Source of the DNA: a bacterium
GTDB taxonomy: Bacteria; UBA8248; JACPRG01; G963555815
Direction: 5' to 3'
DNA: 64,000 nt
NCBI GenBank assembly: GCA_965261595.1
Contig: CBDHDG010000004.1
Span: 64,001 to 128,000 of the forward strand
This document shows positions 4,114-53,074 of this stretch, one piece after another. The notes under the pieces were generated by a model, which made no database searches, was not told the origin of the DNA, and saw nothing but the letters and a program-made list of their open reading frames with translations. The translations under genes were made by a program, and so were the position numbers. How positions within the stretch are numbered: the stretch's first letter is position 1; the number at the start of each line of letters is the position of its first letter.

Positions 4114-6015
4114 TTGGCCCAAGATCCGGCGATGCAGGATCTGGCGGGGCGTCTGGTCCTTGAGAAACAGGCGGCCACGACAAACACACTTTCGAGAGAG
4201 GTAAACAGAAAGTTGGCTTCCAGAACCCCAAAGATGATCGAGACCGACGTTCTTGTCGTCGGCTCAGGCGGGGCCGGAGGCGAGGCCGCCGTTCATGCCG
4301 CCAAAGGGGGCGCGCGGGTCCTCATTCTCGACCGGGGCACTTTCGGACGAAGCGGCGGAACCATCACAGCGGGTCATACCTGCACGGCCGCGGTTGGCGA
4401 GGACGACACCCCGGACCTCCACTTTCGAGACACCGTCATCGGCGGCTACTGCATGTCCGACCAACGCCTCGTCGAACTGTACGCGAGGGAATCGCCCGAA
4501 ACATTGTACGAGTTGGACGCGTGGGGCGGCGGCCAGACATTCCGGAAGGACCGGGACGGGAATTTCGACTTGGTCTGGCCCCCCGGCGGGCATTCCCGCA
4601 AGCGATCCGTTCATTACGGATTCATGACCGGCCCGCGCATCATGTGGGCGCTCCGACGGGAGATTGACCGGCTCAAAGTCCCCTGGATGGAAAATATCCT
4701 CGTTTCCAGTCTCCTGACGGAGGATGGCAGGGTCACGGGCGTGACCGGAATGGACTTGAAGAGCGGGGAGTTCAGTGTCTTCAAGGCGAAGGCGGTTATT
4801 CTGGCCGCCGGCGGCTACTCCACCCTGTGGCCCTACCGGTTCACGACCAACGCGGTCGAGACCGGGGGCGACGTGCACGGCATGGCGTTCCGGGCGGGGG
4901 CGGAATTGGTCGATATGGAATTTATCCAGTTCGTCCCGGCGCAAGTCGATCCCCGCATCACTCACATCAATCCCACATTGACGAATTTCCCCGGTTGGCG
5001 GCCCGAGATCCGGAAGCACGGAAGGTTCCGAAACGCCCTGGGCGAAGACTTTCTCGCCAACTACGATCACATTCGGAAATGGCACACGACGCGAGACGTG
5101 CGTTCGTTCGCCATCTACAACGAGGTGCGGAAAGGGCGGGGCTCCCCCCACGACGGGTGTTACATGGACCTGACCACCGTTCCATCGGACGTCATGGATT
5201 ACGAGTTCAGCAAATTCCAGGGCGGCAGGTCCGTGCCCAGAAGCTATATGGTCAAATGTGAGCGCATCGGTTTCGACCTGTCCAAAGAAGCGATGGAAGT
5301 GGGCGCCAAGGCTCATTTCACGGGGGGAGGCGTCCGGACCGGGCTGGACATGATGTCGGACGTTCAGGGACTTTACGCGGCCGGGGAGGCCCAGGGCGGC
5401 GTGCACGGGGCGAACCGGCTGGGAGGGAACGCCCTGACGCATGTCTTGGCCTTCGGGAGAATCGCCGGCCGTGAGGCGGCGGTCTACGCCGCTCGTCACG
5501 CCGACGGAAACGTCTCGGCTTCCAGGGTGGAGGAGGAGCGCCGGCGGATTTTTCGCTGGACGGACACCGGCGAATCATCCGGTCAGAGCCCCATTCGGAT
5601 TCGGCAATTGATGCAGGAAACCATGTGGGAGAAAGTGGGAATCATACGGAACAAGGAAGACCTCACCGCCGCGCTCGACTGGTTTGCCGAGGCCAAGCGA
5701 GAGCTGCTTCCCAAGGCCGGGATCGACGCCAAGCCCAAGGCATTCAATTTGGAATGGGCGACCGCCGTCCTTCTTCCGCACCAGCTCGACACCTGTATGT
5801 TGGTGGCCCGAGCGGCCTTGGAGCGGACCGAAAGCCGAGGCAATCATCACCGGGACGATTATCTCAAGATGGACAAGGAAAAATGGCAATGTAACACCTA
5901 CCTTCGCCTTTCGGAGGACGGGGCCGTCGCGCTTCGTTCGGAACCCATTCACGTGACGACCGTCGATCCGCTGGAAATCGGCGACGAACGTCCGCAAATC
6001 GAGGCCGAAAAATGA
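4114..6015 (+). CDS. FAD-dependent oxidoreductase, SdhA/FrdA/NadB flavoprotein superfamily (start uncertain)
   Basis: DVLVVGSGGAG Rossmann motif, DMEFIQF, GLYAAGE..GVHGANRLGGNAL, RTESRGNHHRDD C-terminal domain. Confidence 0.85.
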   Translation: MAQDPAMQDLAGRLVLEKQAATTNTLSREVNRKLASRTPKMIETDVLVVGSGGAGGEAAVHAAKGGARVLILDRGTFGRSGGTITAGHTCTAAVGEDDTPDLHFRDTVIGGYCMSDQRLVELYARESPETLYELDAWGGGQTFRKDRDGNFDLVWPPGGHSRKRSVHYGFMTGPRIMWALRREIDRLKVPWMENILVSSLLTEDGRVTGVTGMDLKSGEFSVFKAKAVILAAGGYSTLWPYRFTTNAVETGGDVHGMAFRAGAELVDMEFIQFVPAQVDPRITHINPTLTNFPGWRPEIRKHGRFRNALGEDFLANYDHIRKWHTTRDVRSFAIYNEVRKGRGSPHDGCYMDLTTVPSDVMDYEFSKFQGGRSVPRSYMVKCERIGFDLSKEAMEVGAKAHFTGGGVRTGLDMMSDVQGLYAAGEAQGGVHGANRLGGNALTHVLAFGRIAGREAAVYAARHADGNVSASRVEEERRRIFRWTDTGESSGQSPIRIRQLMQETMWEKVGIIRNKEDLTAALDWFAEAKRELLPKAGIDAKPKAFNLEWATAVLLPHQLDTCMLVARAALERTESRGNHHRDDYLKMDKEKWQCNTYLRLSEDGAVALRSEPIHVTTVDPLEIGDERPQIEAEK

Positions 6016-43699: not shown

Positions 43700-46405
43700 T
43701 TGGCCGATTCCTTCTCCCTTCCCGCGGGCGGAAAGACCGCTCCGCCGGCCCCTTCCCGGACGCGCCGCGAAGGCCCCGCCTTGACGCCGATGATGCGCCA
43801 GTATCGCTCCCTCAAAGGTGAGAATCCGGACGCCGTTTTGTTCTTCCGGATGGGGGACTTCTTCGAGATGTTCTACGAAGACGCGGAGCGGGCCGCGCCC
43901 GTCCTCGATCTCGCCCTGACGTCCCGGCACGACGACGCCCAGGGAAAGGTGCCGATGTGCGGATTTCCCCACCACGCCGTCGAGGGGTACGTAGCCCGGC
44001 TGGTCAAGGCGGGATTTCGCGTGGCCGTCTGCGAGCAGGTGGAAGACCCGAAAAAGGCCAAAGGCCTCGTCCGGCGTGAAGTGGTCCAGGTGGTTTCTCC
44101 CGGGACCGCGACGCAGCCGCAGGTCCTCGAGTCCAAGAGCGGAAACTTTCTTGCCGCCCTGTTCCGCGGCGACCGGGCCATCGGCCTCGCCTTTGCGGAC
44201 CTGTCCACGGGGGAGTTCCGGGCGCTTCAGCTGGAAGGCGAAGAGCGGCATGCCGCCCTGTCCGATGAATGGGCCGATCTGGACCCCAAGGAGGTTTTGT
44301 TGCCGGAAGGGGAGGCGGGCGGTCCCGATTCCCCCCCGCTGTTTCCGGATTCGCAGGAGGCCGGGAGCGCTTTAATCAGCGTGCGGCCTTCGTGGACCTT
44401 CGATCCGGAGGAAGGAGAGCGGGCCCTGCGGTCGGGATTCGGCCTCGGCTCCCTCGAGGGGCTGGGACTGAGCGACATGCCCCTGGGCGTCGGCGCGGCC
44501 GGGGCGCTCTATCACTACCTGCGCGAGACCCAGGGAGATCGGCTCGGACACTTACGGCCGCCGCGGGCCGAATTCCGCGGGGAAAGAATGCTCCTGGACG
44601 CCGCCACGCAGCGAAATCTGGAAATCCTGCGCTCCGGCCCCGAGGGGGAGCGGACCGGGACGCTCCTTGAGATCATGGACCGGACGATGACTCCGATGGG
44701 CGGCCGAAAGCTCAGGGACTGGCTCCTGCATCCGCTCATTCGAATCGAGGAGGTCCAAGCCCGCCTGGAAGCCGTTCGGGCGTTCAAGGAGACCGGCGTC
44801 GGCCTCGAAGCGCTGCGCGGCGCCCTTGAACGAATCGGAGACCTGGAAAGACTACTGGCGCGGCTTCACCTGGGGGCGGGCAACGCGCGCGACCTCCTCC
44901 ATTTGGGGCGGTCACTCGACGCGCTGCCGCTCGTCCGGGAGGCCCTGGCGGACCTCGAGGCGGAAATCATCCGGGATCACCTCGGGGATTGGGACGATCT
45001 CTCCGACGTGGGCGCGGGAATCGACGCCGCCATCGCCGAGGAGCCGCCTCTGTCCCTGCGGGAGGGTGGCCTTATCCGGCATGGGTTCCATCCCGGTCTC
45101 GACCGCCTGACGGAGTTGAGCAAGGGGGCGAAGTCCTGGCTTCGGTCTTATGAAAAACAAGAACGAGAACGGACGGGGATCAAGAATCTCAAGATCGTCT
45201 ACAACAGGGTCTTCGGCTATTGCATCGAAGTGAGCAAGCGCTCGGAGGCGGATGTCCCCGCCGATTACACCCGGCGGCAGACGCTGACGAATGCCGAGCG
45301 GTATGTCACGCCCGCGCTGAAGAAGACCGAGGAAGAAGTCCTTGAGGCCGAAGCCCGCTCCCGGGATTTGGAGTACGAGGTGTTCCAGGAGGTCCGCGGG
45401 GCGGTTCTGGCCGAAACGGAGAGGATTCAAAAGGCGGCGGAGCGGATCGCGGAGCTCGACGTCCTCTCCGGCTTCGCGGAGACGGCCATCCGGAACGACT
45501 ACGTCGAGCCGGAGGTGGATACATCCGGGGCCGTTGAGATTCGGGAGGGACGGCATCCGGTTCTCGAACGCTCGCCCGCGGCGGTCGAGGAGCGGTTCGT
45601 CCCGAACGATACGGACCTGAGCGCATCCGAGCGGCAGGTTCTGGTGGTGACCGGACCCAACATGGCGGGCAAATCCACCTACATCCGTCAAGTGGCGCTG
45701 ATCGTCCTTCTGGCCCAGGCGGGAAGCTTCGTTCCGGCCGCCTCCGCCCGTGTCGGCCTCGTCGACCGGATCTTTACGCGGGTCGGGGCGCACGACCGGC
45801 TGCAACGGGGGCAGAGCACGTTCATGGTGGAGATGGTGGAAACGGCCTACATCCTGCACCACGCCGGCCCCCGGAGTCTGGTCATCCTGGACGAGATCGG
45901 GCGCGGCACTTCGACCTTCGACGGGATCAGCATCGCTTGGGCGGTGGCCGAGCACCTTCACGGCGCCGGGGACAGCGGGCCGCGGACGTTGTTCGCCACC
46001 CATTATCACGAGCTGGCCGAGCTGACCAACCGGCTCCCCCGGATGAAGAACCTGACCATGCTGTCGCGGGAATACGAGGGGAGCGTGGTTTTTCTCCGTC
46101 AAGTGGTCGAGGGGGCTTCGGACCGAAGTTTCGGCATTCACGTGGCGCGCCTGGCGGGGTTTCCCGCGGAGACCTTGGAGCGGGCGGCCCAAATCCTTGC
46201 GACCTTCGAGGGCCGGGAAAAGGAGCGCGCGCCGAAGACGCCGCCGCCCGCGGACGCTCCTCAACTGGGCCTTTTTCGGCCGGAGGATTCCGACTGTTTG
46301 CAAACGCTGAAAGAGGCGGACCCGAATCAGATGACGCCCATCGAGGCGTTGAATTTTCTGCACCGGCTGAAGCGGAACGTCATGGGAGATGACGACCCCT
46401 CGTAA
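43700..46405 (+). CDS. mutS: DNA mismatch repair protein MutS (start approximate)
   Basis: TPMMRQY, FFRMGDFFEMF, TGPNMAGKST, STFMVEM, DEIGRGTST, FATHYHEL. Confidence 0.96.
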   Translation: MADSFSLPAGGKTAPPAPSRTRREGPALTPMMRQYRSLKGENPDAVLFFRMGDFFEMFYEDAERAAPVLDLALTSRHDDAQGKVPMCGFPHHAVEGYVARLVKAGFRVAVCEQVEDPKKAKGLVRREVVQVVSPGTATQPQVLESKSGNFLAALFRGDRAIGLAFADLSTGEFRALQLEGEERHAALSDEWADLDPKEVLLPEGEAGGPDSPPLFPDSQEAGSALISVRPSWTFDPEEGERALRSGFGLGSLEGLGLSDMPLGVGAAGALYHYLRETQGDRLGHLRPPRAEFRGERMLLDAATQRNLEILRSGPEGERTGTLLEIMDRTMTPMGGRKLRDWLLHPLIRIEEVQARLEAVRAFKETGVGLEALRGALERIGDLERLLARLHLGAGNARDLLHLGRSLDALPLVREALADLEAEIIRDHLGDWDDLSDVGAGIDAAIAEEPPLSLREGGLIRHGFHPGLDRLTELSKGAKSWLRSYEKQERERTGIKNLKIVYNRVFGYCIEVSKRSEADVPADYTRRQTLTNAERYVTPALKKTEEEVLEAEARSRDLEYEVFQEVRGAVLAETERIQKAAERIAELDVLSGFAETAIRNDYVEPEVDTSGAVEIREGRHPVLERSPAAVEERFVPNDTDLSASERQVLVVTGPNMAGKSTYIRQVALIVLLAQAGSFVPAASARVGLVDRIFTRVGAHDRLQRGQSTFMVEMVETAYILHHAGPRSLVILDEIGRGTSTFDGISIAWAVAEHLHGAGDSGPRTLFATHYHELAELTNRLPRMKNLTMLSREYEGSVVFLRQVVEGASDRSFGIHVARLAGFPAETLERAAQILATFEGREKERAPKTPPPADAPQLGLFRPEDSDCLQTLKEADPNQMTPIEALNFLHRLKRNVMGDDDPS

Positions 46406-46561
46406 TTTAGCCTTGCCCGCGGGGCCTGCATTCCCTAACATACCGTAAATCAAAGGTAAGGTGGTTTTAAATCCGGGAAGCCCCGGGCGTGTTTGTGAAA
46501 AGGTTTTTGTGAAGAGGAGGCCTTTCCGGTTTCCCGCGTAAAACGATTCACGAAAGATGGG

Positions 46562-46722
46562 TATTGGCCGGGCCGCCTTGCGGAATCTTGATCGCGCTTG
46601 AAAATTGACAGTAGAAGGACCGTCTTCTCGGGACCGCCTCCCGCTTGCGCTATTGGCCGGGCCGCCTTGCGGAATCTTGATCGCGCTTGAAAATTGACAG
46701 TAGAAGGACCGTCTTCTCGGGA
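46562..46722. repeat. Two identical 72-bp direct repeats (46562-46633 and 46651-46722)
   Basis: TATTGGCCGGGCCGCC...AAAATTGACAGTAGAAGGACCGTCTTCTCGGGA repeated with an 89-bp period. Confidence 0.93.
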
Positions 46723-46738
46723 ATGGCCGGGACGCTTC

Positions 46739-48964
46739 ATGCAAACAAAATCGACCGGAAAGAACGAACGCACGAAGACGAGGGTCCGGCGGATCATTCT
46801 GGGGATGGTGTGCGTTATCATCATGCTCGCCATCACCGGAATTTATTTCGAGTTTAATCCCACCCACCTGGTCGCCAACAACGTCATCGTTTACGCCCTG
46901 GTCAACGTCAACATCATTTTGTTGCTGGCGGTGATCCTCCTGGTGATGCGAAACCTCTTGAATCTTTACGCCGAGCGGCGTCAGGGGACTATCGGCGCCA
47001 AGTTCCGAAGCAAGTTGGTCACGGCCTTCGTGGGATTGGCGCTTGTGCCCTCCATTCTGCTCTTTGTCGTTGCCAACGGATTGATCAACCGGAGCATCGA
47101 GAGCTGGTTCAGCGCCCAGGTGGAAAGAACGCTGAGGGATTCCCAGGACGTGGTGCGGCGGATCACGGAGGAGACGGAAAGTCGATTGTCCACTTTGGCG
47201 ACGACCCTGGCCGGGAAGATTAATATCGCCGACTTCGCCCGCCCCGCCTCGCGGGCGGAATTGCAATCGGCCTTGGGGGTGATGCGGCGCGAGCATCAGA
47301 TCGACGGGCTGCAAATCATTTCCGCCGACCAAAAATCCTTCCTCAACGCCCGGAACAAGGACGCGCCGGCCGGCCTGCTTCTGATGGGCCTCGCGCCTGA
47401 GCGGATCGACAAGGTTTTGAGCGGAAAGAATGTGATCGAAAGGAAGCGCCTCGAATCGGGAAGGATCGTGCGTGCGGTCACTGCGCTGGAGGCCGGATCG
47501 GGGAAGAAACGGACGCTGGGCCTGTTGGTCCTGTCGCGTTTCATTCCTTTGAACCTGACGAAAAAGATGGAAAAGGTTGTGGGAACGTACCGCGAGTACA
47601 AGCAACTCGAGATGTTCGAGGACCCGCTCAAGCTGAGCTACCTCATCACGTTTTTGCTGATTACGCTGTTGATCATCTTCTCGGCCATCTGGTTCGGGTT
47701 CTATCTGGCCCGCGGGATCACCGAGCCCATCCAGGCCCTGGTGGAAGGCACCCGCTCGGTGGCCGAAGGCAATCTCAATACGCACGTGAAGCGGGGCGGC
47801 GACGACGAGATCGGCTATCTGGTGGACGCGTTCAACGCCATGACCTCCGATCTCAAGCGGGGAAAGGAATGGCTCGAGCGAAGCAACGACGAATTGGTAA
47901 GCCGGCGGGTGTACATGGAACGGGTCCTGGAGCGGATCGGGGCCGGCGTGGTGTCTCTGGACCGGCGCGGACGCGTGACCACCATCAACCGGTCGGCGGA
48001 GCGGGTGCTGGGCGTCAAGGGGGTGAACGCGCTGGGCTCTCACTACCGGCAGGTGTTCACGGCGCCGCTGATCGAGCCCGCCCGGGAGATCTTCCGTGAG
48101 ATTCTCCAGGCCGGCCGCGATCGCCTGGACGCCCAGCGGTCCGTCACAGTCAGCGGCCGGCTCCTGACGTTGCTGATCAGCGTCAGCGTTTTGACCGACC
48201 GCGACGGAAAAGAGCTGGGCATGGTTTTGGTGTTCGAAGACCTGACGGAGCTGCTCAAGGCGCAGAAGCTCGCCGCGTGGCGGGAAGTCGCACAGGGGAT
48301 CGCTCATGAAATCAAGAACCCCCTGACGCCCATTCAGCTTTCGACGCAGCGGCTGAGAAAAAAATATCAGGAATCCTCCCCGGACTTCGACGTGATTTTC
48401 CAGGAGTGCACGACAGTCATCATCAATCAGGTGAAGGGGCTCATGGAGTTGGTCAATGAATTTTCCCGGTTCGCCCGCATGCCCGAGCCCCAGCCCCGCT
48501 TCTGCAACCTGAACACCTTGATCCGGGAAACCGTGGCGTTGTACAAGGGACACCCGAAGGGGCTCGGGATCGAGACCGACTTCGATGAGCGGCTGGGGCA
48601 GGTCCATGTCGATGAAGAGCAGATGAAGCGCGTCTTCATCAATCTGATCGACAACGCGATTGACGCCGCGCGGCGGGGGGGGCATCTTGTCATCCGGACC
48701 TCGCGGGACGATTTTCAGGGAATGTTGAAGATCGAATTCAGTGACGACGGGTCGGGAATCTCGGCGGCGGACCGCAGCCAGTTGTTTCTGCCCTATTTCA
48801 CGACGAAGCGGCGCGGGACCGGCCTCGGTCTGGCTATCGTCCATCGGATCATCGCCGATCACGACGGCGCCATCGAGGTCCGGGAGAAATCGCCGCACGG
48901 GGCGACGTTCGAGATCCGACTTCCCTTGAATGGCGAGACCGCGCGGTCCCGGTTGGCGGTCTAG
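46739..48964 (+). CDS. NtrY-like membrane sensor histidine kinase (TM-periplasmic-HAMP-PAS-HisKA-HATPase)
   Basis: N-terminal TMs, HAMP (DEIG.L..AFN.M), PAS, AWREVAQGIAHEIKNPLTPIQL, NLIDNA, DDGSG, GTGLGL. Confidence 0.9.
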   Translation: MQTKSTGKNERTKTRVRRIILGMVCVIIMLAITGIYFEFNPTHLVANNVIVYALVNVNIILLLAVILLVMRNLLNLYAERRQGTIGAKFRSKLVTAFVGLALVPSILLFVVANGLINRSIESWFSAQVERTLRDSQDVVRRITEETESRLSTLATTLAGKINIADFARPASRAELQSALGVMRREHQIDGLQIISADQKSFLNARNKDAPAGLLLMGLAPERIDKVLSGKNVIERKRLESGRIVRAVTALEAGSGKKRTLGLLVLSRFIPLNLTKKMEKVVGTYREYKQLEMFEDPLKLSYLITFLLITLLIIFSAIWFGFYLARGITEPIQALVEGTRSVAEGNLNTHVKRGGDDEIGYLVDAFNAMTSDLKRGKEWLERSNDELVSRRVYMERVLERIGAGVVSLDRRGRVTTINRSAERVLGVKGVNALGSHYRQVFTAPLIEPAREIFREILQAGRDRLDAQRSVTVSGRLLTLLISVSVLTDRDGKELGMVLVFEDLTELLKAQKLAAWREVAQGIAHEIKNPLTPIQLSTQRLRKKYQESSPDFDVIFQECTTVIINQVKGLMELVNEFSRFARMPEPQPRFCNLNTLIRETVALYKGHPKGLGIETDFDERLGQVHVDEEQMKRVFINLIDNAIDAARRGGHLVIRTSRDDFQGMLKIEFSDDGSGISAADRSQLFLPYFTTKRRGTGLGLAIVHRIIADHDGAIEVREKSPHGATFEIRLPLNGETARSRLAV

Positions 48965-49189
48965 CCTCAGGGCTGAAACACCATGGGAGGCTTGGCGATT
49001 TCAGTCCTTGCGGCGAGGGCCGAGGGTCGGTTGACCCTGCGCCCGCCCTGGCTGAGGCCCAACCGGCTGGAGCGAAGGGGGGTTTCCTCCGCACGGTGAG
49101 GGTGTTGGATAATCGCGGATTTCTCCCTGCGGATCGCGTCGCGGGGTTTCTCAATTTCCGCTTCAAGGCTTGATTGAGGGAAGAGCGCA

Positions 49190-51382
49190 TTGAGTCGGGG
49201 TCATATCCTGATCGTAGACGACGAAGAGAGCATCCGGTTGTCCCTGGAGGGGATCCTCAAAGACGAGGGGTACACCATCTCTCAGGCGTCCGACGGGGAC
49301 GAGGCCCTGGCGCTTCTGGACCGGGTGGTCCCGGATGTGGTCCTTCTCGATGTCTGGCTTCCCGGGCTGAACGGCATTCAGGCCCTCCAGGCGGTGAGGA
49401 AGCGGCAGGCGGACCTGGAGGTCATCATGATGTCCGGTCATGCCAACATCGAAACCGCGGTCAAGGCGACAAAGCTGGGGGCGTTCGACTTCATTGAAAA
49501 ACCCTTGTCGCTGGACCAGGTGGTTCACACCGTCGAGCTGGCCTTGCGCCAGCATCGGCTGTTCCGGGAAAATTCGGGGATCCGGAGCCGCCTGGATCAG
49601 TCCTCGGAATTGATCGGCCGAAGCCGGGCCTTGTTCAAGCTTTGGCAGACGATAGAATCCTGCGCCTCCGGTGAAGGCGTTGTCTTGATTTACGGGGAGC
49701 CCGGGACCGGAAAGGAATTGGTCGCCCGATTGATTCAGGAGCGCAGGTCGGGCGTCGGCCAACCCTTCCTGCGTGTGGACTGCGGCGACGGGACTTCCGA
49801 TCCGCTGTCTCTCAAGCAGCGAACCTTCGGATCGGAAGGGCCTTCCGGCGAGGTCCAGGCCGGGGCGCTGGAAGCGGCCGGGGAGGGGGCGGTTTATCTT
49901 CATGGGGCGGAGAGGATGAATTCGGAGGTCGCCCTCTTGTTGGCCGAGGCGCTCGAATCCGGTGAATTTCGCCGCGAGGGCGGACGTCGTCCGCTTCCCA
50001 TGAAGGCCGGGATCATATTCTCCACAACCGCCGATCTTCAAATAACGCCCATCAAAGAATTATTCGATCGGGAAATCGGAGCCCTGATCTCCCACGAGCC
50101 CGTCCGCGTCCCGCCCCTGCGCGAGCGCTGGGAGGACATCCCGAGTCTCTGCGAGCACTTTCTATCGCAATATTGCAGCCATCACGGCCTGCGACGTCCG
50201 GTCATCGCCGAAGAGGCGATGGAAGCCATCGAGAAGCACGCCTGGCCGGACAACATCAAAGGGCTCATGAACACCATCGAATGGCTCATCGCCCAGGAGA
50301 CCGGAGAGGTTGTTGAAGTGGAGGACCTTCCCGGGGTGGTGCGGGGGATTACGGAAAAGGAGGCGGAAGACAGGCCGACGGTTCAGGTCCGGGAGCGGCG
50401 GAAAGGGGCCAAGGGCGCCCTGATCGAGCGTCTGAAGGAAAACAACGGAAACCTCCGCAAGACGGCTTCCGAATTGGGAATCTCCGAAGGCGATCTGCGC
50501 GCTGGAATCGACGATGACCGCCCGGGGGCCTCTTCGGGGCGGGCGGGCGCGGGCGTGGCCCAGCGGACCCTGGGAAAAAGCGTGTTGTTGAGCGGCCAGG
50601 GGCTCCATTCAGGACTGAAAACCGGCCTGATCCTCTCCCCCCTTCCGCCCGACAGCGGGATCCGGTTCGGAAGCATCACAACCGAGGAGACCGTTCCGGC
50701 CCATCTGGACAACGTGGTCTCCACGGACTTCGCCACCACCCTTCAGCGGGGAAACGTCAAGGTCCGGACCATCGAGCACCTCATGTCCACCCTGCACGCC
50801 TACGGTGTCCACAATCTCTTGATCAAGGTCGAGAACGAGATCCCCATCATGGACGGATCGGCGGTGGAATTCTGCCGGCTCATCGACGAGGCGGGCGTTA
50901 TCGAGCAGGAGGCGTCCCTCGATCCGTTGAAAATTCAATCGACCGTTGAAGTGGTTTCGGAACGCGCCGGACAGGAGCCCGCGGTGCTGAAGATCGAGCC
51001 TCACACGGAATTCATCATCGAATTCCAATTCCTCCTGCCGAAGCCCATCGGGATGCAGAAGTTCTCCTACACCCTGGACGGACCCGAATCCTTCCGGGAC
51101 GCCATCGCCCCGGCCCGGACGTTCGGCGAGATCAAAGAGGTTGAGCGGCAGGGCAAACGCGGGCTGATCGGGGGCGGAAGACTGGACAATGTGATTCTCC
51201 TGGACGCGGGAAGGGTGATCAACACGGAGCTCCGCTTTCCCGACGAGTTTGTCCGGCACAAAATCCTCGACGTTATCGGCGATCTCTACCTCCTGGGCCG
51301 GCCCCTGAGGGGGAAGGTGACCGCCCGGATGAGCGGTCACACCGAAAACATCAAACTTCTCCGCAAGATTCAGACCGCGTGA
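49190..51382 (+). CDS. lpxC: Fusion: NtrX-like response regulator (REC + degenerate AAA+ + Fis-like HTH) joined to LpxC UDP-3-O-acyl-GlcNAc deacetylase
   Basis: REC: IVDDE, LLDVW, MSGH, FIEKP. Walker A GEPGTGKE. From about 50555: QRTL, GQGLHSG, TIEHLM, EIPIMDGSA, IAPARTFG, RHKILDVIGDL, GHTEN. No stop between modules. Confidence 0.9.
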   Translation: MSRGHILIVDDEESIRLSLEGILKDEGYTISQASDGDEALALLDRVVPDVVLLDVWLPGLNGIQALQAVRKRQADLEVIMMSGHANIETAVKATKLGAFDFIEKPLSLDQVVHTVELALRQHRLFRENSGIRSRLDQSSELIGRSRALFKLWQTIESCASGEGVVLIYGEPGTGKELVARLIQERRSGVGQPFLRVDCGDGTSDPLSLKQRTFGSEGPSGEVQAGALEAAGEGAVYLHGAERMNSEVALLLAEALESGEFRREGGRRPLPMKAGIIFSTTADLQITPIKELFDREIGALISHEPVRVPPLRERWEDIPSLCEHFLSQYCSHHGLRRPVIAEEAMEAIEKHAWPDNIKGLMNTIEWLIAQETGEVVEVEDLPGVVRGITEKEAEDRPTVQVRERRKGAKGALIERLKENNGNLRKTASELGISEGDLRAGIDDDRPGASSGRAGAGVAQRTLGKSVLLSGQGLHSGLKTGLILSPLPPDSGIRFGSITTEETVPAHLDNVVSTDFATTLQRGNVKVRTIEHLMSTLHAYGVHNLLIKVENEIPIMDGSAVEFCRLIDEAGVIEQEASLDPLKIQSTVEVVSERAGQEPAVLKIEPHTEFIIEFQFLLPKPIGMQKFSYTLDGPESFRDAIAPARTFGEIKEVERQGKRGLIGGGRLDNVILLDAGRVINTELRFPDEFVRHKILDVIGDLYLLGRPLRGKVTARMSGHTENIKLLRKIQTA

Positions 51383-52461
51383 CCCGACCTGAAAATCCGA
51401 ATCGGCCCGAATCCGGCCTGACCTACCGTGGGGCGGGCGTCGATATCGAGGCCGCCGACGCGCTGGTTCCGCGTTTGCGGGAGTTGGCCGAATCCACCCG
51501 CCGCCCGGAGGTGGAGGGAGCGATCGGAGGGTTCGGCGGCGGATTCCGGATCCCGCCGGGGCGCCGGGCGCCTGTCCTCATCGCTGGCATGGACGGCGTG
51601 GGCACAAAGCTCGATCTCCTGATCCGCACGGGGGGACACGCCGCCGCGGGGCGGGATCTGGTCGCCATGTGTGTGAACGATGTTCTGGCACACGGGGCCG
51701 AACCCCTTTTTTTCCTCGATTACATCGCGGCCGGAAGGTTGGACGCCGGCGTGGCGGCGGAAGTGGTGACCGGCGTCGCCGAGGCCTGCGTGGAATGCGG
51801 CTGTGCGCTTCTGGGCGGAGAAACGGCTGAGATGCCGGGCTTTTACGCCGGAGCGCGGTATGACCTGGCCGGCTGCGCCGTCGGCATCGTGGAACGGGAT
51901 CAGGTCATCGACGGGAAAAAGATTCGCCCGGGCGACGTCCTGTTGGGACTCGCTTCGAACGGTCCGCACAACAATGGTTTCTCCTTGATTCGGCGCATCC
52001 TGGAAGAGAAATCCCTGTCGCTGGACGCCCTGCTTCCCGGCCCGGGGGGGGGGGAGGAGGAGGTGCGAACCTTGGCAGAGGCCTTGCTGGCCCCGACGCG
52101 GCTTTACGTCCGGCCCGTCCTGGACGCCCTTCGGGAAATTCCCGTTACGGGCATCGCCCATATCACGGGCGGGGGGATTGCCGGAAACCTGGCGCGCGTC
52201 CTGCCGGAGAACTGTCGGGCCGTCGTCAGAAACGGCGATTGGCCCGTGCCGTCCGTCTTCGGCTACCTCCAATCGGCCGGCGACATCGACGCCCGGGAGA
52301 TGGAGACCGTGTTCAACATGGGGATCGGTCTCATCGTTGTGGTTTCCGCCTCCAACGGGGAGCGGATGATGAAAAAGCTGCGTCAATCCAGTGAGGAAGT
52401 CTACGCGATTGGACGCATCGAGGAAGGACGCGCGACCGGGAAGCGCGTGGTTCTGGAATAG
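51379..52461 (+). CDS. purM: Phosphoribosylformylglycinamidine cyclo-ligase
   Basis: YRGAGVD, DGVGTK, MCVND, PLFFLDY, GGETAEMP, AHITGGG, FNMGIG. Confidence 0.95.
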   Translation: MTRPENPNRPESGLTYRGAGVDIEAADALVPRLRELAESTRRPEVEGAIGGFGGGFRIPPGRRAPVLIAGMDGVGTKLDLLIRTGGHAAAGRDLVAMCVNDVLAHGAEPLFFLDYIAAGRLDAGVAAEVVTGVAEACVECGCALLGGETAEMPGFYAGARYDLAGCAVGIVERDQVIDGKKIRPGDVLLGLASNGPHNNGFSLIRRILEEKSLSLDALLPGPGGGEEEVRTLAEALLAPTRLYVRPVLDALREIPVTGIAHITGGGIAGNLARVLPENCRAVVRNGDWPVPSVFGYLQSAGDIDAREMETVFNMGIGLIVVVSASNGERMMKKLRQSSEEVYAIGRIEEGRATGKRVVLE

Positions 52462-52480
52462 GGGGGGAAGGGGGGAGGAG

Positions 52481-53074
52481 ATGCGAATCGCGGTATTCGC
52501 CTCCGGCCGCGGCTCCAACCTGCGGGCCCTGATGGAAGCGGCCGGCACGGGCTACCTGAAAGCCGAGATCGCGGTTGTTTTGAGCGACGTCCAGAGCGCT
52601 CGGGCGCTGGAGCGGGCGTCTCAGCAGGGCCTGTCCGCCCGGTTTCTGGAGCCCGAGGCGTTCGAAGTAGCGGCCTTGGAGATTTTGAGAAACGCGGCCG
52701 CGGACCTGATATGTCTGGCCGGCTTCATGCGCATCCTGAGCGGCGATTTCATCCAGCGGTGCGGCGTCCCGATCCTGAACGTTCACCCATCGCTTCTGCC
52801 GGCCTTCCCCGGCCTGCGTCCCCAGAGGCAGGCGCTGGAGCATGGGGCGCGCGTTTCAGGAGCCACGGTCCATTTGGTGGATGAGCGGGTCGACCATGGT
52901 CCCGTCATCGCGCAGACGCCGGTTCCCGTTTTCCAGGATGATGACGAAGGGAGTCTCTCGGAACGTATTCTTCGGCAAGAGCACCGCATCTATCCGATGG
53001 CCGTGCGGTGGTTCGCCGAAGGCCGCGTCTCGGTCGAAGGACGGCGCGTGCGGATAGCGGCCGCTCCCGCGTAA
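52481..53074 (+). CDS. purN: Phosphoribosylglycinamide formyltransferase
   Basis: ASGRGSNL, LAGFMRIL, NVHPSLLP, GATVH.V...VD.GP, QEH. Confidence 0.95.
   Translation: MRIAVFASGRGSNLRALMEAAGTGYLKAEIAVVLSDVQSARALERASQQGLSARFLEPEAFEVAALEILRNAAADLICLAGFMRILSGDFIQRCGVPILNVHPSLLPAFPGLRPQRQALEHGARVSGATVHLVDERVDHGPVIAQTPVPVFQDDDEGSLSERILRQEHRIYPMAVRWFAEGRVSVEGRRVRIAAAPA

Follow-up and report, generated by a model that had tools for sequence, protein, structure and literature searches.

LpxC carries out the committed step in making lipid A, a tightly regulated and usually essential step, and the enzyme is an antibiotic target. In E. coli its C-terminal extension bears a degron for FtsH; outside the Gammaproteobacteria, the control of LpxC is largely an open field. 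Three papers connect lpxC with two-component systems. In Desulfovibrio vulgaris, lpxC is described as the single target of the sigma54 regulator DVU2934, whose kinase is DVU2931 (PMC3333781), and a mutant of the D. alaskensis G20 kinase Dde_3000 (regulator Dde_3003) shows lpxC strongly upregulated, the only gene to respond in this way (PMC4045070). The orthologous operon of S. fumaroxidans has lpxC directly upstream (PMC3333781, PMC4045070), and R. sphaeroides lacking ntrYX has 8.8-fold more lpxC mRNA and increased lipopolysaccharide (LPS) (PMC7240162). The 64,000-nucleotide stretch analysed here (the window; positions 64,001 to 128,000 of contig CBDHDG010000004.1, assembly GCA_965261595.1, from a bacterium of the GTDB phylum UBA8248) presents a different arrangement. 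Its gene for an NtrY-type sensor histidine kinase (46694..48964, forward strand) is followed by a single gene (49190..51382, forward strand) whose product joins a receiver domain, a degenerate AAA+ domain, a remnant of a helix-turn-helix (HTH) and a complete LpxC.

This fusion very probably places LpxC under direct two-component control. If so, a receiver tethered to the cell's only LpxC would be a new regulatory principle in outer-membrane biogenesis. A search of the full-text literature, with subscription journals and supplementary files outside its reach, returned among the papers listed no description of a receiver-LpxC or NtrX-LpxC fusion. A 2025 review on how lipid A is regulated names proteolysis, Lon and effects of NtrYX and ChvGI on transcription, and the words 'fused' and 'fusion' do not occur in it (PMC12444477). 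In their source records, the fusion proteins described below are labelled only as LpxC or NtrX.

Architecture and authenticity of the fused gene

The fused gene is a single frame of 730 codons plus stop, starting with TTG, 8 nt downstream of GAGGGA. Its receiver (REC) domain spans residues 6-115 (49205..49534; Pfam Response_reg, 106.5 bits). It is followed by a sigma54-type AAA+ core and lid at residues 141-393 (49610..50368), where Sigma54_activat matches residues 141-287 with 68.6 bits over profile positions 1-149 of 168 only, and AAA_lid_14 matches residues 311-393 with 67.9 bits. Walker A is present (GEPGTGKE), but there is no GAFTGA, no DE pair at the Walker B position, which VYLHGAE occupies, and no arginine-finger motif. 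Next comes a Fis-type HTH remnant at residues ~405-436 (50402..50497), LRKTASELGISEGDLRAGIDDD, whose terminal helix, the recognition helix, is truncated and acidic, LGISEGDLRAGIDDD; Pfam HTH_8 is not called here at E<=0.01, although relatives do carry it. A low-confidence linker (residues 437-457, 50498..50560) includes an internal GTG at 50555 and leads into the LpxC deacetylase domain at residues 458-727 (50561..51370), which matches nearly the entire Pfam profile PF03331 (positions 1-266 of 268; 273 bits against a cut-off of 27) as well as NCBIfam TIGR00325 (239 bits, above the cut-off of 187.25). The receiver has its D54 in LLDVW, and the LpxC motifs TIEH, HKILD and terminal GH align with tvEHl, HKilDaigD and sGH of the solved P. 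aeruginosa LpxC. Catalytic and zinc-binding roles belong to the E-H of TIEH, to the His, Lys and Asp residues of HKILDxxGD and to the terminal GH. The sequence-only reading from which this analysis started had proposed both the uninterrupted 730-residue frame with its four parts and this set of motifs, including the missing GAFTGA; all of it holds, with the HTH reduced to a remnant.

The same reading called the N-terminal part NtrX-like. By resemblance this stands, since the best N-terminal NCBIfam model is NtrX (NF051870) and the best match in the Protein Data Bank (PDB) for residues 5-435 is Brucella abortus NtrX (5m7n, 250 bits), but the NF051870 score of 303.2 bits lies well below the cut-off of 600. 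The fusion thus falls outside NtrX by score and by HTH, while it shares with NtrX the adjacency to an NtrY kinase. It also falls outside the sigma54 activators (bacterial enhancer-binding proteins) on account of GAFTGA, Walker B and the arginine finger. It is a member of LpxC by full-length match, motifs and fold, and the best solved relative of the remainder of the protein is P. aeruginosa LpxC. In the AlphaFold2 model of the protein, the mean pLDDT is 88.6 and the LpxC part is mostly above 90, while linkers at residues 132-138, 395-405 and 443-453 fall below 50.

Could the fusion be an artefact of assembly or sequencing, in which a lost stop codon or a frameshift joined an ntrX gene to a separate lpxC gene? 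The linker is indeed rich in G+C, and initiation at the GTG at 50555 would yield a canonical LpxC N-terminus. Three other studies yielded contigs (21.2, 21.1 and 7.2 kb) that span 48800-51600; these differ by 6-8 substitutions and show 0 gaps. Four substitutions fall within the fusion open reading frame (ORF), namely G220C, F277L and two silent ones, and none creates a stop; all three contigs read through the junction region (50450-50600), which the earlier reading had singled out for checking, without stop or indel. A 730-residue protein with 96% identity is present in another assembly, and the same frame is open in at least 46 genomes of the phylum. Of the 8000 protein clusters scored with a single Nitrospinaceae query, 1882 reached E<=1e-100, and LpxC is paired with Sigma54_activat in 120 of the 120 listed. 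In another protein search, the 120 best-listed clusters (39-98% identity) all have LpxC together with the AAA lid, and nearly all have Sigma54_activat and Response_reg as well. Four shorter entries (P0002, P0009, P0010 and P0013) are devoid of a receiver, and their source contigs do not exceed 11.9 kb. The near-identical protein found elsewhere, the phylum-wide occurrence and the independent contigs refute the artefact, whose probability we regard as negligible: the fusion is real, ancient and phylum-wide.

The stretch preceding the GTG at 50555 is G-rich and has no clear Shine-Dalgarno sequence, as had been noticed before, and the residue preceding the LpxC start motif QRTL varies among 48 relatives, so that an internal start releasing free LpxC is not a conserved feature. 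RNA contigs from one study (run X15), short and of low depth, match 50028-50294, 50398-50556 and 50983-51173 with 0-2 mismatches each; they reveal neither one continuous transcript nor the end of an RNA and may be due to DNA carry-over.

The fusion is the only LpxC of its genome (6.17 Mb in 7 contigs, 96.7% completeness, 5.6% contamination); a standalone lpxC, the presence of which had been an explicit question, was not found there. lpxB is present as well, and with the fusion as the one LpxC beside it the fused domain is likely to be an active deacetylase. The genome also contains rpoN, and a search at E<=1e-30 found no second NtrX-like paralogue in it. Across the phylum the picture is much the same. 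LpxC was detected in 50 of 51 genomes, in one copy save for split fragments (none was found in G002), and each of the 51 has one NtrY-type kinase (E<=1e-80). The LpxC domain directly neighbours the kinase in 46 genomes, both on a single contig and strand, and contig ends part the two in G008, G009, G010 and G018; in all 46 the intervening distance is of the fusion type, bearing out the proposed conservation and kinase adjacency. That distance, from the kinase end to the LpxC domain, is ~1350-1450 nt in 35 genomes and only ~510-600 nt in 11 (G024, G040 and G042-G050). The former corresponds to the long form seen in the window, and the latter to a short form, where LpxC follows the receiver (to residue ~124-149) and both AAA+ and HTH are missing. 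Both occupy the same position: the order ntrY-fusion-purM-purN was found in all 15 sampled genomes of the phylum (7 long, 8 short), with mutS upstream in 12 of the 15 stretches.

Conservation, decay and loss within the fusion

The two ends of the fusion and its middle have had different fates. We compared 48 long fusions with 29 unfused regulators encoded behind NtrY-type kinases; the two sets are of unequal depth, and the receiver serves as the internal control. Among the long fusions, pairwise identity averages only 31.3% in the AAA core, as against 58.7% in the receiver and 61.6% in LpxC; the corresponding means of the unfused regulators are 59.6% for the AAA core and 55.0% for the receiver. 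Receiver residues D10, D11, D54 and K104 are invariant in 95 aligned fusions, and in 48 rows Ser or Thr occupies position 82 and Phe or Tyr position 101; the receiver thus keeps a complete phospho-acceptor pocket, made up of the aspartate, the acidic pair, Ser/Thr, Lys and the aromatic residue. LpxC residues E529, H530, H690, K691, D694, D698 and H717 are equally invariant in the 95 fusions. Motifs of the middle part contrast sharply with those of the unfused regulators: GAFTGA-like sequences occur in 0/48 fused versus 16/29 unfused proteins, the Walker B DE pair in 4/48 versus 26/29, FRxDLxxR of the arginine-finger region in 0/48 versus 28/29 and the HTH recognition motif in 0/48 versus 21/29, and the relative P0026 has no HTH region. 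Because these motifs have decayed, the fused regulator is predicted to be incapable of sigma54 activation, as the sequence-only reading had anticipated from one protein, and probably does not read DNA. In 45 of the 48 the lysine of Walker A survives, and the fused AAA+ domain may still bind nucleotide.

LpxC itself also differs between fused and standalone proteins. Sixteen of its positions are conserved in at least 85% of the 95 fused proteins but in at most 25% of 17 standalone ones; they may represent an interface or mere shared ancestry. Past the catalytic GH, the median number of residues is 16 in the 95 fused proteins (94 have at most 28; the one value of 241 is a pattern artefact) and 13 in the protein from the window, compared with 20-89 in standalone LpxC (13 measurable of 17). 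Judging from these lengths, the extension that bears the FtsH degron in E. coli is missing from fused LpxC.

A scan of species-representative genomes extended both forms beyond the phylum (taxa are those of the record titles). Long fusions were found in Thermodesulfobacteriota (L002), Desulfomonile (L010, L014), Nitrospinaceae/Nitrospinota (L016, L068) and an unclassified bacterium (L004), and in the six tested by Pfam the receiver, AAA+, lid and LpxC were all matched. Short fusions of 420-447 aa come from Thermoanaerobaculia, Acidobacteria and Terriglobia (L005, L006, L008, L009, L018), Binataceae (L012, L013) and Deltaproteobacteria/Desulfocapsaceae (L003, L015, L031), and all ten of them consist of Response_reg and LpxC only. 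Each form is represented by at least 120 protein clusters. Within a Nitrospinota sample, 60 of 61 genomes have LpxC, which lies in a frame of 675-797 aa in 52; five other frames measure 460-514 aa and three are fragments. The 61-genome sample of the class to which L009 belongs is divided between full-length receiver-LpxC (21 genomes) and standalone LpxC only (40, G059 included). Among 41 genomes of the phylum of L012, titled Binataceae, six have the full-length short form and two more have LpxC in frames of 736-746 aa. In five of five fusion genomes reached through loci of other phyla, the fused copy is the single LpxC. Three of the 21 receiver-LpxC genomes mentioned above (G085, G105 and G109) have a standalone LpxC as well, and these are possibly intermediates or hold two differently regulated isozymes. 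At one further locus, titled Thermodesulfobacteriota (L007:3443-5667), the long fusion lies in two frames, with the regulator split at ~4240-4273, owing either to a frameshift or to an assembly error.

The phylogeny indicates that the middle part was lost more than once. We inferred a tree from the receiver and LpxC of 95 fusions and 10 unfused pairs, with every row retained (FastTree, LG model) and the unfused pairs as root. The fusions form one group (support 0.926), within which short forms nest among long ones: L084 falls into a clade of support 1.0 with the long forms L088, L089 and L004, L003 into one of support 0.955 with 19 long forms, L085 pairs with P0111 (support 0.92), and the family-f4 clade (support 1.0) holds both forms. 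In L084 (4840-6213), a short form from the same phylum, the linker retains HLRQKIKAYDI, the leftover of the third HTH helix, which we read as the direct mark of an internal deletion of AAA+ and HTH. By this comparison, the middle part appears to have been deleted repeatedly, with receiver and LpxC kept each time. We take the long form to be ancestral because its AAA+ and HTH are homologous to those of the unfused activators and because the deletions are nested in long-form clades.

Proposed two-component control of LpxC and its alternatives

Taken as its longest ORF, the kinase at 46694..48964 has 756 aa (translation may in truth begin later), and it matches NtrY_N (46.9 bits, cut-off 23.2), HAMP (43.7), PAS (48), HisKA (39.9) and HATPase_c (87.8) in Pfam, in full agreement with its earlier description as NtrY-like; it is also the single NtrY_N match in the source genome. 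From its sequence we read three membrane helices at the N-terminus, then ~175 aa of extracytoplasmic domain, a fourth helix and finally HAMP, PAS, HisKA and HATPase_c. A link between this kinase-regulator family and lpxC is also suggested, independently of the fusion, by loci in which the regulator is unfused. We found ~44 loci with an NtrY-type kinase gene directly 5' of an unfused regulator gene (L039 and L061, cut by contig ends, are unclassifiable), and in 12 of them lpxC lies 0.15-1.2 kb upstream on the same strand, the order being lpxC-DUF4390-ntrY-regulator. The secreted DUF4390 protein (57-141 bits) was observed between lpxC and ntrY in 4/4 loci tested for it, L024, L033, L055 (4075-4644) and L078; a DUF4390 search of the source genome gave no match, and control genomes were equally silent. 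By analogy, the nearer functional relatives of the fused regulator are probably the Desulfovibrio sigma54 activators that have lpxC as their only target, and the Desulfovibrio contig L074 encodes an intact sigma54 regulator on a piece too short to show the operon. Where the fusion locus has no kinase gene, the kinase can still be found: each of five such genomes has exactly one full-length NtrY-type kinase (35-43% identity, E<=1e-131), and in three of the five it is encoded on another contig than the fusion, with no adjoining regulator gene. A lone kinase and a lone fused regulator in the same genome would fit a conserved pair. At one of the Desulfomonile loci, from a metagenome-assembled genome (L014:2601-6274), the fusion is directly preceded by a CheB gene and by a hybrid kinase that has three receiver stretches, which stand where an NtrY-type kinase lies elsewhere.

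We propose that the kinase and the fusion make up a two-component pair in which the housekeeping LpxC has become the output of the regulator, with kinase-driven phosphorylation of the receiver controlling LpxC after translation; comparative evidence makes this fairly probable. Direct post-translational control is the best reading because the receiver pocket is invariant, the fused LpxC is the sole one, AAA+ and HTH have been lost repeatedly, and there are kinases without an adjoining regulator. The kinase would sense something at the envelope through its periplasmic domain and set how far D54 is phosphorylated; that state of the tethered receiver would in turn determine the amount of LpxC activity, and lipid A synthesis would be tuned after translation and not at the promoter. 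The receiver might dock on LpxC and release it, as in CheB, or might pair two LpxC domains through receiver dimerisation. We lean towards this pair of options, short of even confidence, because the linker is flexible and the pTM of the short form is high (see below). The signalling probably restrains LpxC; this direction is a guess by analogy, made because lpxC mRNA goes up in Desulfovibrio and Rhodobacter when the kinase or the pair is lost. As for history, an NtrY-type kinase and an lpxC-regulating sigma54 activator would at first have adjoined lpxC, the activator would then have fused to the product of its target gene, and the transcription machinery, by then dispensable, would have decayed and in many lineages been deleted, leaving receiver-LpxC. 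The complete scenario, in which an envelope-sensing NtrY kinase phospho-switches a receiver tethered to LpxC, and in which the family records a transcription factor that fused to the product of its own target and shed its transcription machinery stepwise, is a tentative one. The sequence-only reading had likewise envisaged a repurposed regulator through which the kinase tunes LPS flux; the conserved fusion, the former activator at its N-terminus and the neighbouring kinase stand, and the control itself is something that we infer from comparison.

Among the alternatives, the one that ranks next, though we think it unlikely, is that the receiver governs the lifetime or the location of LpxC and not its catalysis, either by exposing the enzyme to a protease, in the manner of RssB and CpdR, or by docking it at the membrane kinase. 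Proteolysis of LpxC in E. coli and membrane localisation involving a LapB homologue in N. meningitidis, both given in the review cited above (PMC12444477), lend it plausibility. Fused LpxC, without the C-terminal extension, would need another turnover handle, and the flexible, variable linkers make a better tether than an allosteric rod. Yet in the loci compared, a protease or adaptor gene is never a conserved neighbour, and the structural model of a short form hints otherwise. AlphaFold2 gives L009 a pLDDT of 91.9 and a pTM of 0.80, which is high for two flexibly linked domains and hints at a defined, direct packing of receiver against LpxC. Its LpxC part superimposes on LpxC of P. aeruginosa, E. 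coli and A. aeolicus with target-normalised TM-scores of 0.83-0.95 and rmsd of 1.3-2.5 A (Foldseek), and among the matches listed in a Foldseek search of the PDB there were LpxC chains only and no two-domain match.

Two further explanations would deny the receiver any control over LpxC. A neutral fusion, in which loss of a stop codon merged neighbours and LpxC is constitutive beside an idle receiver or phosphate sink, seems improbable to us, common as fusions of neighbouring genes are. An idle receiver would hardly have kept its pocket invariant in 95 sequences from several phyla or remained as conserved as LpxC, and the repeated deletions always took the middle part and spared the receiver. 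Moreover, the unfused order has the regulator last, after lpxC, DUF4390 and ntrY, and not regulator-lpxC, so simple stop loss between neighbours does not give the fusion. Less probable still is a protein that remains both transcription factor and enzyme, its HTH binding DNA, for example in autoregulation, with the fusion coupling no more than dosage. Many long forms do have a recognisable HTH_8 in precomputed Pfam annotation, AlphaFold2 places three helices at residues 398-441 of the protein from the window, and Brucella NtrX is said to bind DNA without sigma54. Nevertheless, the recognition-helix motif that most unfused regulators have is absent from every long fusion compared, the corresponding helix in the source genome is acidic and truncated with HTH_8 uncalled, and P0026 does without the region altogether. 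The whole module, furthermore, has been deleted in 11 genomes of the phylum and in large clades elsewhere, always with receiver and LpxC kept.

Several observations weigh against the direct phospho-control that we favour or against parts of its history. Phosphotransfer to D54 and any effect on LpxC are derived from sequence comparison. The long-form model has a pTM of 0.49 and offers no inter-domain arrangement, and the short-form linkers, 25-50 residues after the last receiver helix, are variable and of low complexity; long linkers of this kind would argue against rigid allosteric transmission. Outside the phylum, no more than 5 of 19 fusion loci (L002, L004, L012, L013 and L015) have an NtrY-type kinase gene directly upstream. 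The AAA+ module is kept in most genomes, as shown by the long-form distance in 35 of 46 genomes of the phylum and by frames of at least 675 aa in 52 of 61 Nitrospinota. Since it is so widely kept and its Walker A lysine is so rarely lost, the AAA+ remnant has probably retained some role, nucleotide binding or oligomerisation for example, and 'vestige' may be too strong a word for it. At the base of the fused clade stand short-form groups, those titled Binataceae and then Acidobacteriota, and support deeper in is 0.13-0.41. With such weak deep support and basal short forms, the tree alone does not fix the ancestral state, and the proposed order of events rests on mechanistic plausibility together with the nested cases. 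Finally, the Desulfovibrio regulators are likened to our unfused regulators by published description and gene order.

Neighbouring sequence and comparison with described systems

Kinase and fusion genes are separated in the window by a 225-nt spacer (48965..49189), compared with ~45 nt in the relatives compared, for example L088. A scan of 46300-51600 found no terminator-like site within the spacer and, over the whole region, nothing beyond chance (1 promoter-like site versus 1.2 expected, 7 terminator-like sites versus 5.1 expected). The spacer contains a ~37-nt element (49012-49048) with three further genomic copies at 95%, 89% and 77% identity; it also occurs on separate small contigs in four metagenome runs and looks like a small dispersed repeat. 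Downstream, the GTG start of purM (51379..52461, forward strand) overlaps the TGA stop of the fusion by 4 nt (GTGA, 51379-51382), which suggests translational coupling, and purM is followed by purN (52391-53074); purN lies downstream of the fusion also in the Nitrospinota loci L016 and L068. An antisense open frame of 1328 aa (44912-48898, reverse strand) runs across mutS and the kinase gene and is most likely a by-product of high G+C and opposite-strand codon bias. Elsewhere in the source genome, the LapB zinc-ribbon model PF18073 matches at C4:640321-640395, within an open frame of 434 aa that could encode a LapB homologue; the model has 28 positions and in six-frame searches matches 10 of 14 control genomes, Gram-positives included, which makes it too unspecific to be of use.

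The fusion family is large, and its members include marine nitrite oxidisers. Unfused activator, long fusion with decaying AAA+ and HTH, and minimal receiver-LpxC together form a graded natural series, which could serve as a model for how a regulator changes the level at which it acts. By the gene-fusion argument, NtrY-type kinases would be regulators of the envelope and of LPS in origin, a view that bears on the pleiotropy of NtrYX in Alphaproteobacteria.

How does the fusion compare with systems already described? The Desulfovibrio pairs DVU2931/DVU2934 and Dde_3000/Dde_3003 resemble it in consisting of a kinase and a regulator whose only known output is LpxC, with a regulator built of receiver, sigma54 AAA+ and HTH (PMC3333781, PMC4045070). 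The operon order given there for S. fumaroxidans matches that of the 12 unfused loci found here. The output in Desulfovibrio is transcription of a separate lpxC from a sigma54 promoter, whereas in the fusion a covalent bond links the regulator to LpxC, and GAFTGA, the DE pair of Walker B, the arginine finger and the helix that reads DNA have all disappeared from it. NtrY and NtrX of Alphaproteobacteria are similar in other respects: the kinase shares the series NtrY_N-HAMP-PAS-HisKA-HATPase_c, and NtrX is the best NCBIfam and PDB match of the regulator part. NtrX, too, is not known to have GAFTGA. Brucella NtrX, however, keeps Walker B as YLDE and has FREDLFHRL, whereas in the alignment the fusion from the source genome has YLHGAE and no second motif; NtrX, moreover, binds DNA as a protein of its own, has dozens of genes in its regulon and is not fused to an enzyme. 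NtrYX restrains lpxC expression and LPS in R. sphaeroides and in C. crescentus (PMC7240162 and PMC12444477, respectively).

Two further comparisons concern LpxC itself. In E. coli, as summarised in the review, FtsH, LapB and YejM act together in the degradation of free LpxC through its C-terminal degron (PMC12444477); fused LpxC ends 13 residues past the GH in the source genome and carries a phospho-receiver instead. Bifunctional LpxC-FabZ (NF009667/PRK13188) is likewise a natural LpxC fusion, and the LpxC part of the protein studied here matches its LpxC half with 200 bits. There, however, the partner is a C-terminal fatty-acid dehydratase that provides metabolic coupling, while here it is an N-terminal signalling module.

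The architecture is most closely paralleled by response regulators with a catalytic domain in the same chain, namely CheB (receiver-methylesterase), PleD and WspR (receiver-GGDEF) and RpfG (receiver-HD-GYP). The short forms in particular, with an intact receiver pocket, a flexible linker and an enzyme, are built like CheB. The outputs of CheB, PleD, WspR and RpfG are enzymes of signalling or adaptation, whereas that of the fusion, a protein known from sequence, is an essential biosynthetic enzyme of a committed step. All these comparisons considered, the best reading is that the fusion is a response regulator with enzymatic output that would follow the logic of CheB, and that it is descended from, or similar to, NtrX and the lpxC-governing sigma54 activators.

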